A DNA stretch of 55,360 nucleotides from IMG/VR virus record IMGVR_UViG_3300042363_000446. The stretch is one strand, 5' to 3'. The notes below the pieces were generated by a model, which saw nothing but the letters and a program-made list of their open reading frames with translations, was not told the DNA's origin and searched no databases. Below are positions 12,431-54,187 of the stretch, piece by piece. The position numbers and the translations under genes were made by a program. Positions within the stretch are counted from its first letter, which is position 1. Each line of letters starts with the position of its first letter. This DNA is from an uncultured virus (IMG/VR IMGVR_UViG_3300042363_000446). Taxonomy: Duplodnaviria; Heunggongvirae; Uroviricota; Caudoviricetes.

Positions 12431-12964
12431 ATGACATCACCACAAAAAGCAAAAGGTAATTCTTGGGAAAGAACAGTCGCTATATATCTTAGCGACTTAT
12501 ATCAATCCAGCTTTCATAGAATCCCTAATTCAGGAGCTTATGTTGGTGGAAAGAATTCTGTAAGAAAAGAATCTCTTGACACGAACCAAGTAAAGTCTTT
12601 TAAAGGTGATATAGCTGCTCCAGATTCATGGGTTAACTTCAATTGTGAATGTAAATCTTATGGAGACTTCCCGTTTCATCAAGTTCTAGCAGGTAGCTGT
12701 AAACAACTTGATGGATGGTTAGAACAGTTAATGGCAGTAGCAGATAAAGACGATCTAAACATTTTGTTTGTTAAGATCAATCGCAAAGGTAAGTTTATCG
12801 CTGTTCAAACTAAGTACACATGGGTTACTGACCAGTTTATGTACTATACATCTAAAAATCAGGGTGATTGGATTCTCGTTGACTTTGATCATTTTTTTAA
12901 TCATAATAAAGACCTTCTTAAAGTATATTCAAACTCTAATTCTCAACCCGACACCAAGTCATAA
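12431..12964 (+). CDS. Holliday junction resolvase-like PD-(D/E)XK nuclease
   Basis: KAKGNSWER...GDI...ECK pattern of Hjc-type phage resolvases. Confidence 0.7.
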   Translation: MTSPQKAKGNSWERTVAIYLSDLYQSSFHRIPNSGAYVGGKNSVRKESLDTNQVKSFKGDIAAPDSWVNFNCECKSYGDFPFHQVLAGSCKQLDGWLEQLMAVADKDDLNILFVKINRKGKFIAVQTKYTWVTDQFMYYTSKNQGDWILVDFDHFFNHNKDLLKVYSNSNSQPDTKS

Positions 12965-12974
12965 TTATTAACAA

Positions 12975-13455
12975 TTCGTTTAGTCGGGATAGCCCGACTC
13001 TCCTTGAGACTGCTAGCATAGTGCTATTGCCGTTGGATTCTGGAGTAAGCGTACAATCTAGTAGTAATTGATTGTACGGAACACCGACAGGGCTCTCGTT
13101 ATGTGTGCGAACCCTGAATGAGTCTATATTTTATTCTATCTTGCGGATATAGAACATGCGTTGCTGAAGCGATAGTGATTTGTTCACTATTAGTCTTCAA
13201 CTACAGTCCCAGCAAACCTTACAGAGCAACCGGTGGCGTTAGGTAGCTAAACGGCTAACTCTAACGGGGAACAGATGGCAAAGGCGAGAGGCCGCAAGGA
13301 ATCTTAACCAGTGGTAGTGCTGTTTAGCACTACCATGGCTTCAAGACTGCAATGATTTAAACCCCAGATATAATTTAATCAATATGATACCGAAATGAGT
13401 ATGAGCAAAGCGAATACGAATGAGTGTATCAGTTGTCCGTAAGGACAACTTTTAA
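12975..13455 (+). ncRNA. Candidate large structured non-coding element (RNA and/or ssDNA)
   Basis: ORF-free ~490 bp, ~47% GC by hand count over 12981-13350, at least 9 hairpins with G-U pairs and GNRA loops on the + strand; family not recognised. Confidence 0.65.
13431..13453 (+). terminator. Probable intrinsic terminator at 3' end of the structured element
   Basis: AGTTGTCC-GTAA-GGACAACT followed by TTT. Confidence 0.55.
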
Positions 13456-13461
13456 TATAGA

Positions 13462-13689
13462 TTAAAAGAATGGAAGTTTAGATTTCTTTGTTGTTTCTAA
13501 GTTGGATTCAATTAGTTCACTTACTAATTTTCTTTCCGGTGCAGATAAATTAAGGGCGTCTGTATATGACAGTCCGCCCCTAGAATACCATGAAAAAGAA
13601 AGTGCTTGTCTTTTTATCTCAATACATTCTTTTTCTAGCTGGTCAATCAGGCTCTTTATATCCTCAGGGGCTAAACTAAGGAGCCTCAT
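13462..13689 (-). CDS. Baseplate hub assembly protein, gp51-like
   Basis: SWYSRGGLSYTDALNLSAPER; overlaps and follows the gp26-like gene. Confidence 0.55.
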   Translation of the reverse strand: MRLLSLAPEDIKSLIDQLEKECIEIKRQALSFSWYSRGGLSYTDALNLSAPERKLVSELIESNLETTKKSKLPFF

Positions 13690-14519
13690 CCGAAAAAATC
13701 GGATACATTCAACGTAAATGGTTGTTGATATTGGTGATTACATTCACCGCATTGTAATGCCAAAGGTTTTAAGTTAGTTTTTTCTTTTAAGTTAGCGTTA
13801 TGCTCTTTGATTGCATTAAAAGTATCTCTAGAACAGTTTCTTAAAAAGTCTTCAATAAACTCTTTATTATCTACTCTATGCCCATCAGGAGTTTCAACAT
13901 ATTCTATAGTTTTAGCTATAAGTTTAATTGATAACTCTGTAATAGTTTTTAACCCTTCTTGAGATTTTTGTTCTTTTATTGAAGCATCTTTTTCTTGTTC
14001 AACGGACAATAGCAACCTTTGTAAATCAAATTGTGCTAAATTAGCTTGATTGATGTCATTATAATCCAAAGGATTAAACTTTAACTTTAGTTCAAGAACT
14101 TCTAATTTTTCTTCATAGTCAGGTGACGTTAGCCCACTTAGTACAAAATTTAGATCAATTGCATAAGTTGCTTTATTCTGGCAAGCAGGGCACTGTGAAT
14201 CTAGTTCTAAACTATTTCCAGTAGAAGCTACTTTGATTCCAATCAATATAGTGTCTAAATCAATATTGTTTATTTTCCATGGATCTTTGATATCAGGTAT
14301 ACAACTTTTTATAAGATCAACTATTACATTACCGTTAAACAATGCATCGGGTGTTTTTGTAGTAATTTCATCAATCGCTGTCATAGGATAAACAGGTATT
14401 TCTTCTGTTTCTGGATAATTTAAAACATCAGGAGTATAATATTTACCCTTGGATGGTAGCTTGATATAGATAGCTGGTCTTCTAAAGTATTGCTTTAGTG
14501 GGTTATTAGATGTACTCAT
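13686..14519 (-). CDS. gp26: Baseplate hub assembly chaperone, gp26-like
   Basis: IKLPSKG...PMTAIDE...DLDTILIGIKVASTG...CPAC and C-terminal CGECNH. Confidence 0.75.
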   Translation of the reverse strand: MSTSNNPLKQYFRRPAIYIKLPSKGKYYTPDVLNYPETEEIPVYPMTAIDEITTKTPDALFNGNVIVDLIKSCIPDIKDPWKINNIDLDTILIGIKVASTGNSLELDSQCPACQNKATYAIDLNFVLSGLTSPDYEEKLEVLELKLKFNPLDYNDINQANLAQFDLQRLLLSVEQEKDASIKEQKSQEGLKTITELSIKLIAKTIEYVETPDGHRVDNKEFIEDFLRNCSRDTFNAIKEHNANLKEKTNLKPLALQCGECNHQYQQPFTLNVSDFFG

Positions 14520-24863: not shown

Positions 24864-25157
24864 ATGATAGCTAAAGACAGTCAAGTAGTTGAAGTATTAG
24901 AAGATGGCACTTTTTATGCATTTGACTTAGAAGTGTGTGATCGTGAAGCAGAAAAAGCATTAAAAAACTTACTGAAAAAAGAAGGCAAACTGTTTAACTA
25001 TGATTATGGTATGACAGTGTTTACTCTATTTGTGTATTGTGTTCATATCTTGCGTGAAGCGGGTTGGGAAACAGAAGAACTAGTTAACGAAGTATTAGAT
25101 CATACTGCAATATATGACGGTACTGATGATGACGATGACGAAGATAACGAAGAATGA
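24864..25157 (+). CDS. Hypothetical acidic protein
   Basis: ORF with SD GAGG and late promoter CTAAATA at ~24837. Confidence 0.65.
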   Translation: MIAKDSQVVEVLEDGTFYAFDLEVCDREAEKALKNLLKKEGKLFNYDYGMTVFTLFVYCVHILREAGWETEELVNEVLDHTAIYDGTDDDDDEDNEE

Positions 25158-25849
25158 AATTATTATTAGGTCCTGAAAATTTACAAACTGAACTTGACTT
25201 CACTCTTTTTAAAAAGAAGGGTCCATTTTATATAGTTAATAATACAATATCTGCTCATGTAAAAAGAATTGGTGTTTACGTATCAGGTGGATTAGATTCT
25301 ACTGCTCTTTTGTGTTTGATATTAAGTGAGTTGAAAAGTATTGACAAGTTACATGAAATAGAAGTAGTTTGTTTTACTATAGAAAAAAGCGATGGTCCAA
25401 CTTATTATGCAACACAAGTTATTGAACAAGTAGAAAAGCATTTTAATGTTAAGCTAACACATATTAACAACATAAAAAATGATCCTATTCCAGACTTAAC
25501 TGGAAATATTGGACCAACGCCTATAAAAGAAATTAGAGATTACGATCCCAACAATATGATTATATTCATGGGTATTAATCGTATGGCTCCTCCTGAATTA
25601 AAAACTTATACTTATCCATTGAAAATAGATTATGGATATCAAACTCAAGGGTATCATTATAATTCACCATTTTTGTTCTTACATAAACCACAAATACTAG
25701 ATATCTATTATAAGTTAGGTTGTGAAAATATTATACCCTATACGCATACCTGTACTCAACTTGAAGTGGGCCAATGCGGTATTTGTTACTCTTGTGAAGA
25801 AAGAGCTTGGGGTTTTGAAATGCTCGGTAAACAATATGTTATATCCTAA
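25154..25849 (+). CDS. QueC-like PP-loop ATPase
   Basis: VSGGLDST PP-loop and C-terminal TC-x7-CGICYSCEER zinc motif. Confidence 0.65.
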   Translation: MKLLLGPENLQTELDFTLFKKKGPFYIVNNTISAHVKRIGVYVSGGLDSTALLCLILSELKSIDKLHEIEVVCFTIEKSDGPTYYATQVIEQVEKHFNVKLTHINNIKNDPIPDLTGNIGPTPIKEIRDYDPNNMIIFMGINRMAPPELKTYTYPLKIDYGYQTQGYHYNSPFLFLHKPQILDIYYKLGCENIIPYTHTCTQLEVGQCGICYSCEERAWGFEMLGKQYVIS

Positions 25850-53248: not shown

Positions 53249-54187
53249 TTGAAAAAATTACTTAGTATCGCACTATTGGCACTAACTGTGCCCGCATTTG
53301 CAGGAGTTGATCCTCTAACCGAAGTTAAACCCGTTAGCTCAGAATGGTTCTATAATGGTTCAGAACCTGATTATGTTGTAGAAGTACCAAGCTTTACTGT
53401 CCCAGCAACAGGCGTAATTGACTATATTGATTCAGTTATACCTCTTGAGTTCGGTGAAGATCGTTGGGTGAAGGCAGTTCAATTTATACCCGGAGACAAG
53501 CGTGTTCTCCATCATCTATTATCTTATGTAGTAGCTGACGGACAAAACGCTTCTGATGGTATGATTGATGAAACTGTTAACGATAACCGTCGTGAATTTC
53601 TAGAAGGGTATGCACCCGGCAAAGAATACGCAACTGAGTTCCCAGCTAACACTGGTGTGTTTATGCCTGACGGCTCTGCACTGCGTATGAGCATCCACTA
53701 CACTTCTTTCGGTCAGGAAACTGCTGATAGTACTCGTGTAGGCCTATGGTTTGCTGATAAAGATGCTGAGCCAGAATATGAGTTTCATACTTACTCAGTG
53801 TCTACCCCAATGAACCAAATTCATATTCCTGCAGGACAAATGGAATATGCTTCTAATGCAACACACGTATTTGAAGACGAAATTACTTTGCACGGTTTCC
53901 GTGCTCACATGCATTATCGTGGCAAATCAATGGCTGCAAGAGTAATTTACCCTGACAATACAGTTGAAGACATTATAAATGTTCCTGATTACAACTTTGC
54001 ATGGCAACCTACTTATCGTATGGCAGAACCAATGGTTATTCCAGCTGGTTCACGTGTGGTAGTTGAAGGTCTATTTGATAATTCGCAATACAACGTAGGT
54101 AATCCAGATCCAAATGTTGATGCGATTGGTGGTTTACAATCATGGGAAGAAATGTTTATTGGATATTTCTCTTACACTACCAATTAA
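53249..54187 (+). CDS. Exported copper type II (PHM/DBH-like) monooxygenase
   Basis: TTG start after SD AGGAGG; signal peptide ending AFA; CuH-like VLHH + IHY, CuM-like HMH + EEM; YNFAWQPTY. Confidence 0.78.
   Translation: MKKLLSIALLALTVPAFAGVDPLTEVKPVSSEWFYNGSEPDYVVEVPSFTVPATGVIDYIDSVIPLEFGEDRWVKAVQFIPGDKRVLHHLLSYVVADGQNASDGMIDETVNDNRREFLEGYAPGKEYATEFPANTGVFMPDGSALRMSIHYTSFGQETADSTRVGLWFADKDAEPEYEFHTYSVSTPMNQIHIPAGQMEYASNATHVFEDEITLHGFRAHMHYRGKSMAARVIYPDNTVEDIINVPDYNFAWQPTYRMAEPMVIPAGSRVVVEGLFDNSQYNVGNPDPNVDAIGGLQSWEEMFIGYFSYTTN

Follow-up and report, generated by a model that had tools for sequence, protein, structure and literature searches.

The locus and its surroundings

The window analysed here is a stretch of 55,360 nucleotides from an uncultured virus (IMG/VR record IMGVR_UViG_3300042363_000446), and the phage that it represents is a T4-like jumbo phage. 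A late sigma factor and a gp47/gp46-like nuclease pair are encoded upstream of an ORF-free gap at 12965-13461 (497 nt), which follows the gp55-gp47-gp46-nuclease block. The features that flank this slot are:

12431..12964, + strand: PD-(D/E)XK nuclease gene (RusA-like resolvase; PHROG 244, E 3e-17; Pfam PDDEXK_15), last of the gp55-gp47-gp46 block
12879..12907, + strand: sigma-70-like site inside the resolvase gene (10/12 matches; position not conserved among homologues)
13462..14519, - strand: convergent baseplate-hub chaperone genes of 75 aa and 277 aa, bounding the slot

An earlier reading made from the letters alone (hereafter the sequence-only reading) singled out this gap as the sole long ORF-free one, richer in GC than the others and filled with stems. 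This description was borne out. In the part of a near-identical record (G002) that covers window positions 1-52,703, it is the only ORF-free stretch of at least 330 nt; its GC content is 0.468 over 12981-13350 as compared with 0.22-0.36 in seven other gaps; and every inverted repeat that had been proposed as a stem is present in the place named.

Several further features were observed around the slot. Late-promoter-like ATAAATA boxes stand at the starts of gene blocks (8230 (+), 8254 (-), 14577 (-), and 19671, 24038 and 26274 (+)); one precedes gp55, and none lies directly before the RNA described below. A GACAC word is found near the nuclease stop (window 12948-12959 and homologues) despite a variable protein tail, with variable spacing to the RNA, and 86/86 homologues have a T6(C/T) run close to where the 75-aa gene starts (window 13686-13700, - strand, where this gene and the 277-aa gene overlap). 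A QueC-like gene (25154-25849) and a gene with a copper monooxygenase domain (53249-54187) are placed amid the structural genes of the window. Upstream of the window, G002 contains 5 kb without a complete ORF (206942-211946), probably a piece of a very long gene that the locus boundary truncates.

Conservation of the element

A DNA pattern built from the last RNA hairpin (P11, below) matched at least 119 IMG/VR stretches. Among the matches listed, the nuclease was located just upstream in 72/80, ending no more than 435 nt before the last hairpin; in seven others a contig end truncated the sequence, and L094 carried an inserted endonuclease gene. The 75-aa gene was found downstream in 78 of the 80 matches listed. 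Protein-anchored searches, which involved no selection for the RNA, recovered the element behind the best nuclease matches wherever the sequence was long enough. The 110 distinct full intervals were reduced to 88 below 92% identity (class A), with a median identity to the window of 64%. Of the 72 pattern matches in a GTDB scan, none was accompanied by the RNA or by neighbouring genes, which left no clue to the host.

Some of 80 distant loci lacked the element in the 2 kb examined. The five of these genomes that were looked at further have genes directly after the nuclease, and in all five the core was found once, slightly further downstream. The RNA and the tail that follows it remain joined even where genes are inserted on both sides. 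In L094 (588-1031) and L095 (1681-2178) an endonuclease-like gene has been inserted immediately next to the RNA, on one side or the other, and in L094 a 15-nt word from the end of the nuclease gene is duplicated upstream of the RNA.

A folded RNA on the plus strand

Folding energy alone cannot assign the strand, as the folding z is more negative on the - strand (-5.72) than on the + strand (-3.15). The sequence-only reading had argued for a + strand RNA, and the pair counts agree: over 55 core pairs in 43 sequences, G-U occurred 72 times and A-C 5 times, so the folded strand is +. Covariation was assessed by mutual information on the 88 class-A sequences, and pairs were counted in 43 sequences (the window and every second of 85 anchored representatives). 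The following parts were mapped:

12970..12979, + strand: A-rich leader motif, conserved, directly 5' of hairpin P0; may be a -10 box; no -35 detected at a constant position
12982..12999, + strand: P0, variable 5' hairpin (inverted repeat and covariation analysis)
13000..13045, + strand: 5' domain with P1 (13000-03/13042-45; 100% paired), an internal loop with tandem G-A, and a variable hairpin; common to class-B relatives
13050..13078, + strand: P2, variable hairpin (GNRA in 26/76 loops)
13083..13234, + strand: P3, long-range helix 13083-86/13231-34 (100% paired; two-sided change in 2/4 pairs)
13088..13116, + strand: P4, hairpin with conserved internal loop (two-sided change in 4/5 outer pairs)
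13119..13156, + strand: P5, hairpin whose loop has two long-range contacts (two-sided change in 8/8 pairs)
13136..13278, + strand: pseudoknot 13136-41/13273-78 (two-sided change in 5/6 pairs) and 2-bp contact 13134-35/13205-06 (2/2); 98-100% paired
13157..13236, + strand: conserved core with UGCGUU, P6 (13160-65/13225-30), variable P7 (13166-98), ACUAC, UUACAG, AACCGG and P10
13207..13270, + strand: P9, pseudoknot helix 13207-10/13267-70 (two-sided change in 3/4 pairs), enclosing the P8 hairpin 13237-66 (4/5)
13292..13299, + strand: R1, direct repeat (GCAA word), varying jointly with R2 as an identical copy
13312..13335, + strand: P11, last hairpin of the RNA, flanked by R1 and R2 (98.8% paired; two-sided change in 1/8 pairs)
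13347..13354, + strand: R2, direct repeat and probable 3' end of the folded RNA

Two-sided (compensatory) changes were detected in 42/64 named pairs of the 43 sequences, as compared with 27.8 in shuffles (0/500 shuffles), and 90.8% of cells were paired, against 79.9% in shuffles and 34-45% in slid registers. Three of the 13 helices are out of register or in poorly aligned columns (71%, 40% and 66% paired); they were retained, which lowers the pair totals. P1, P3, P4, P5, P6, P8, P9, P10, the P5-loop pseudoknot and the 2-bp contact 13134-35/13205-06 are well supported. Covariation thus revealed long-range pseudoknots that the sequence-only reading had missed. P10 (13217-18/13235-36) crosses P6 and P3; covariation also supports equivalent crossing helices in class B and the 121Q family (both below). 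The conservation of P11 is partly ascertained, since this hairpin served as the search pattern.

Two of the stems proposed earlier have to be redrawn. TTCTAT/ATAGAA was in the wrong register, its loop 13134-13141 being paired with distant bases, and CC-GCAA-GG is not a conserved GNRA tetraloop: its closing pair is retained in 26/83, and the GCAA word is the direct repeat R1. A long-range pairing CUUGAG/CUUCAAG in the minimum free energy fold was without covariation support. An RNase P-like P4 pairing and a group I P7, judged by eye, were rejected because those bases covary with other partners. UGC at 13157-59 and GCA at 13349-51 could pair in 76.7%, with zero two-sided change.

R1 and R2 change together: both repeats were present in 50 sequences, neither in 19, and 16 were discordant (Fisher P 3e-7, in related sequences that are not independent evidence). 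As no complementary partner explains this joint change, the repeats may be recognized by a lineage-specific reader protein.

In Rfam, the window had no match at gathering level and only two chance hits at E<=10. The lack of hallmark motifs of tmRNA, RNase P and group I or II introns, noted previously, was upheld by the lack of Rfam matches, by ARAGORN (no tRNA or tmRNA) and by covariation helices that differ from theirs. The Rfam models of GOLLD, ROOL, OLE and raiA did not match the window or the relatives scanned. Positions 12982-13354 are a real + strand RNA without an Rfam family, kept in 88 distinct phage loci.

The tail module

The last ~100 nt had also been read as RNA. They form instead a separate module (13355-13450) that resembles single-stranded DNA signals:

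13355..13391, + strand: AT-rich, A-biased spacer (GC 0.24; A 1622, T 1004 over homologues), candidate unwinding element or RNA-to-DNA switch
13385..13431, + strand: GA hairpin of stacked tandem G-A pairs with a mini-hairpin tip, candidate single-strand initiation-like DNA signal
13431..13450, + strand: perfectly paired hairpin, most often capped by a C(GNA)G triloop, without a U-tract

The GA hairpin lies on the + strand in 85/87 homologues and on the - strand in 2. A strict form of its motif was found in 76/87 tails and 0/87 cores, and a loose form in 85/87; the background of the strict form is 4-5 matches per genome of 267-367 kb. Further matches in G002 and G005 fall within genes or tRNA regions. 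C(GNA)G loops cap the two tail hairpins in 50/85 and 56/85, and no GNA triloop was found among the loops called in the core hairpins P2, P7, P8 and P11. The last stem had been described as GTAA-capped and terminator-like; however, only 3/74 homologues have at least 5 T in the next 8 nt, and the usual loop is C(GAA)G (45/85). It has been reported that GCGNAGC mini-hairpins are unusually stable DNA structures, present at the phage G4 priming site and in an ssiA that the primase RepB' recognises, and that ssiA has a CCGAAGG mini-hairpin (PMC13037366).

The order of parts is fixed: RNA, repeat-hairpin-repeat, AT-rich spacer, GA hairpin, GNA hairpin. An extra TAAATGA motif was observed in 37/88 class-A tails (e.g., L038, L056 and L065, outside the window), and an ACCGTAA/TTACGG pairing in class-A tails could close both tail hairpins into a branched structure.

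Related RNAs in more distant phages

In more distant phages different RNAs occupy the same slot: class B (32 segments) and a marine class C (3 loci). The 5' domain of the window RNA begins 8/32 class-B segments (nhmmer E 3e-11 to 1e-4; none in reversed controls). Class B has a common core, CCGUUG...UAC.G..CAACCG, with two crossing helices that covary, and it shares the repeat-hairpin-repeat end; the tail is present in 27/32. In 4/32 class-B and 2/3 class-C loci the RNA is immediately followed by an additional GA hairpin, formed by the opposite strand. In the class-C loci (L304, L306 and L333, 2510-2940) the middle part differs, and the repeat-hairpin-repeat end and tail are retained; L304 and L333 had no Rfam match.

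The Rfam motif Polynucleobacter-1 (RF01718) was identified at the 5' end of same-slot RNAs in 7 loci, at 93-120 bits. It has been described as an orphan motif of unknown function (Weinberg 2010; PMC2864571). The model spans ~140 of ~400 nt and includes none of the shared core or tail; it has no match in the window, and its threshold of 37 bits was exceeded only in class-B relatives. The view that the window holds a large phage ncRNA of possibly undescribed class stands in part: the RNA is large, on the + strand and uncatalogued, as judged by covariation, but it is not wholly undescribed, since relatives in the same slot start with Polynucleobacter-1.

Other short conserved elements were seen after the nuclease. 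In L274, L275, L290, L297 and L301 (~2516-2640) a ~110-nt element with two stems lies between an ATAAATA late-promoter-like box and an ORF, and it may be a riboswitch or leader; Rfam gave no match for it in L274 and L275. A second short element (L277 2516-2650; L302 2492-2620), also without an Rfam match, separates the nuclease from a secreted-binding-protein-like gene.

Multi-copy elements in cultured jumbo phages

The gap of the window had no blastn match in cultured phages. Four of the eight cultured relatives viewed (121Q, GAP32, PA5oct and Phosso) keep a gene-poor gap of 800-1500 nt in the slot, with the nuclease inverted or replaced by endonuclease VII; the other four have no such gap there. 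In 121Q and GAP32 the gap contains an extended -10 promoter, a conserved region, a core, repeats around a hairpin with a G6 run, an AT spacer and GA/GNA hairpins. Their core has ACAGAGCAACC in common with the window. Two crossing helices were 100% paired in 9 copies of the 121Q family (two-sided change in 6/10 pairs), and the G6 run of the last hairpin is invariant in 9/9 aligned copies of the family; it is absent from the class of the window.

The 121Q-type element was matched in 71 cultured records; its carriers include 121Q, GAP32 and RaK2-like phages. Copies were located on one strand at 90, 193, 247 and 327 kb in 121Q, at 35, 99, 178, 262 and 341 kb in GAP32, and at 54, 129 and 315 kb in Muenster, surrounded by unrelated genes and each with a TGnTATAAT-type (sigma-70) promoter. 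They are spaced more regularly than expected by chance in GAP32 (P 0.0014) and in 121Q (P 0.026); in Muenster the regularity is not significant (P 0.23). PA5oct has three copies, at 12.9, 75.9 and 246.1 kb; Phosso has one, and searches for extra copies in G002 and G005 found only one in each.

The link between the cultured and the lake RNAs is weak: 1/32 class-B segments matched at E 6.5e-4 and 0/88 in class A, and the four best matches of the class-B core model fall on cultured cores, at E 0.055-0.45. None of the models matched the PA5oct and Phosso cores. The PA5oct element is a look-alike that may be homologous, as judged from slot and layout. Its copy at 246 kb coincides with the published ncRNA004 (246116-246734; 0.08% of phage reads early and 0.02% late); this transcript stops 18 nt past the second repeat, which leaves 57 nt to the GA hairpin. 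In Phosso both strands carry a tail (the second one is complete), and an RNase HI gene follows directly downstream. Some small "hypothetical" CDSs inside the element may be spurious, namely PA5oct gp338-341 (75.7-77.2 kb; L345 4479-5991) and 121Q gp516 (247.8 kb).

A possible replication origin

The RNA is always followed by DNA-type hairpins that resemble the enzyme-loading sites of plasmids, which points to an RNA-primed origin. With moderate confidence, we propose that the folded RNA and the downstream single-stranded-DNA signal make up one unit, most likely a transcription-primed replication origin that follows the logic of ColE1 and T4. Since tail copies on the opposite strand are unusable by the RNA, they count in favor of a signal at the DNA level. 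The origin is further favored by the C(GNA)G loops of the tail and their absence from the core hairpins called, by the single GA motif of ColE1 (below), by the joint retention of RNA and tail, by the evenly spread copies with promoters in GAP32 and 121Q, by the RNase HI gene next to the Phosso element, and by the end of PA5oct ncRNA004 ahead of the GA hairpin.

In the proposed mechanism, the RNA would be transcribed by the host RNA polymerase, by read-through from the gp55-46 block in the window and from its own sigma-70 promoter in the cultured relatives. The pseudoknotted 5' part would fold during synthesis, and the 3' part would stay hybridised to the template in the AT-rich spacer as an R-loop. 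The identical repeats R1 and R2 may be bound by a lineage-specific protein, which would hold the transcript or cut it. A primer 3' end could be generated by RNase H-type or other nuclease cleavage, or by stalling, and would be extended by the phage family-B polymerase. On the displaced + strand the GA and GNA hairpins would form; these would withstand SSB and act as loading points for helicase and primase in lagging-strand synthesis, a role modelled on ssiA behind the ColE1 and pAMbeta1 origins.

Five related records were screened for replication proteins. A family-B polymerase and a DnaB-like helicase were identified in 5/5, a 5'-3' nuclease in 4/5 and an endonuclease VII match in 1/5; the RNase H family was found in 0/5 of these lake-phage records, and a search for gp59 gave no match, with an uninformative control. 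The slot lies ~5 kb from the main switch of gene orientation and GC skew in both long records, but the genome-wide skew switch gives no support to an origin because it is explained by gene orientation. At fourfold sites, GC skew at the element is negative on the sense strand on both sides and shows no origin sign. The invariant, multiply knotted core also speaks against an origin, as it is more conserved than a primer might need. Further points against it are the single copy in G002 and in G005, the 0/5 result for the RNase H family, the lack of a G6 run and of a positionally conserved promoter in the class of the window, the weak statistical link to the cultured phages, the non-significant spacing in Muenster, and the four cultured relatives without a gap in the slot.

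A bolder version, which we regard as doubtful, is that jumbo T4-like phages of lakes, seas and enterobacteria start replication from a superfamily of pseudoknotted primer RNAs of 350-600 nt, of which Polynucleobacter-1 would be a fragment. The core would then make or license the primer 3' end as a ribozyme or RNP, the co-evolving repeats would provide lineage-specific initiator specificity, and evenly spaced copies would speed the copying of a 350-kb genome.

Alternative explanations

The strongest competitor is a large ncRNA acting in trans as a GOLLD/ROOL/raiA-like scaffold, a protein sponge or a counter-defence factor; the tail would then be a DNA signal in its own right, or a terminator that depends on a protein, and would happen to travel along. 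Size, an invariant core and several pseudoknots would suit such an RNA, as would the separate promoters of the cultured relatives and two identical repeats fit for binding by a dimeric protein. We consider it possible but rather unlikely: the DNA-type loops, the opposite-strand tail copies and the even copy spacing are left unexplained, and the PA5oct look-alike transcript is minor and early.

It could also be suggested that the element is a recombination, resolution or packaging site at the DNA level, where extruded hairpins are cut by resolvase or terminase and transcription merely opens the duplex. The slot adjoins gp46/47 and a resolvase of either family, and P11 and the last hairpin are perfect palindromes; however, the G-U bias, GNRA loops and long-range pseudoknots are those of an RNA fold, the GA hairpin forms on one strand only, and the extra copies are distant from gp46/47 and the resolvase genes. 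This explanation appears improbable.

A cis-acting 3' element of the gp55-47-46-resolvase transcript, serving stability, termination or as a barrier against the convergent late operon, would account for the short distance to the resolvase (no more than 435 nt upstream of the last hairpin in 72/80 among the matches listed), and no conserved promoter was found in the class of the window. It is quite improbable in view of the retention of the element, with its own promoter, where the resolvase is inverted, of copies between co-directional unrelated genes, and of the lack of a U-tract.

That the invariant core is a ribozyme that cuts or ligates RNA, e.g., its own 3' end, is very improbable. Invariant unpaired blocks are packed amid crossing helices, and there is a loose topological likeness, by eye, to group I cores, but no Rfam ribozyme, group I, group II or RNase P model matched, and covariation gives neither a G-binding P7 nor an RNase P P4 pairing.

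The idea of the sequence-only reading that the RNA guides or partners the PD-(D/E)XK nuclease, for which tight adjacency within the clade of the window speaks, is the hardest to believe, since RNA and tail stay together despite gene insertion on either side (genes separate nuclease and RNA in 5/5 genomes tested and in L094), cultured relatives that keep the gap have the nuclease inverted or endonuclease VII instead, further copies of the element sit among unrelated genes, and no variable guide-like segment stood out.

Novelty and significance

In the literature surveyed, largely open-access and mostly titles and abstracts, neither the RNA nor the multi-copy element was described, and no replication origin was reported for these phages. 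A catalogue of 8,495 IMG/VR motifs, each of at most 151 nt, has been published (Fremin 2023; PMC10690425), and fragments of the window RNA may be among them.

For the start of replication in T4-like jumbo phages, of which no description was found in the literature, the locus is a concrete candidate. Most large structured bacterial RNAs are without a known job, and the locus adds a new RNA family whose pseudoknotted fold has been mapped; it also suggests what the orphan Polynucleobacter-1 motif might do. Cultured phages that infect E. coli K-12 or P. aeruginosa PAO1 have related elements. Should the origin reading fail, there would still be a multi-copy RNA family, conserved in jumbo phages that are well studied, which went unnoticed or was annotated as small hypothetical genes.

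Comparison with known systems

The large bacterial RNAs GOLLD, ROOL, OLE and raiA are similar in size, in their occurrence in phages and in their many pseudoknots; in contrast to these, the element is not beside tRNAs and has a fixed DNA-type tail. The class-B RNAs that carry Polynucleobacter-1 resemble that of the window in core and tail.

T4 oriF and oriG consist of a promoter and a transcript that forms an R-loop in an AT-rich unwinding element, and there are several origins per genome. Their transcripts are mRNAs and are not known to have a large conserved fold or ssi hairpins. The element is likewise found in T4-like genomes, with a predicted transcript that runs into an AT-rich tract and with dispersed copies in the cultured relatives; the promoters here are of the sigma-70 type, whereas those of T4 depend on MotA.

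The likeness to ColE1 lies in a long folded RNA followed, on the same strand and ~50-150 nt on, by a GA-flanked hairpin of the GCGNAGC type. In all of ColE1 the strict GA motif occurs once, on the primer-sense strand, 134 nt behind the A5 run after a G6 stretch; we take this A5 run to be the RNA-DNA switch and the GA-motif site to be n'-pas. A G6 run near the 3' end is present in the 121Q family, and the class of the window is without it. Similarity to RNA II/RNA I was not detected, either by Rfam in the window or by class A and B HMMs on ColE1. The phage RNA further differs in being conserved by its pseudoknots, and the phage encodes its own polymerase and helicase. The layout recalls that of the transcript-primed origins of ColE1 and pAMbeta1 (PMC5778457): in ColE1, primer extension exposes ssiA (PMC3167613), and in pAMbeta1 a transcript-derived primer has ssiA downstream (PMC5703833). 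With pAMbeta1 and RSF1010 the element shares an ssiA-like downstream hairpin and, in some phage relatives, signals on both strands; it differs in that no Rep protein or iteron array was identified here, and the plasmid primer RNA has no large conserved fold. On this reading the element, which is not a member of any Rfam family, would work in the manner of ColE1 and T4 while belonging to neither.
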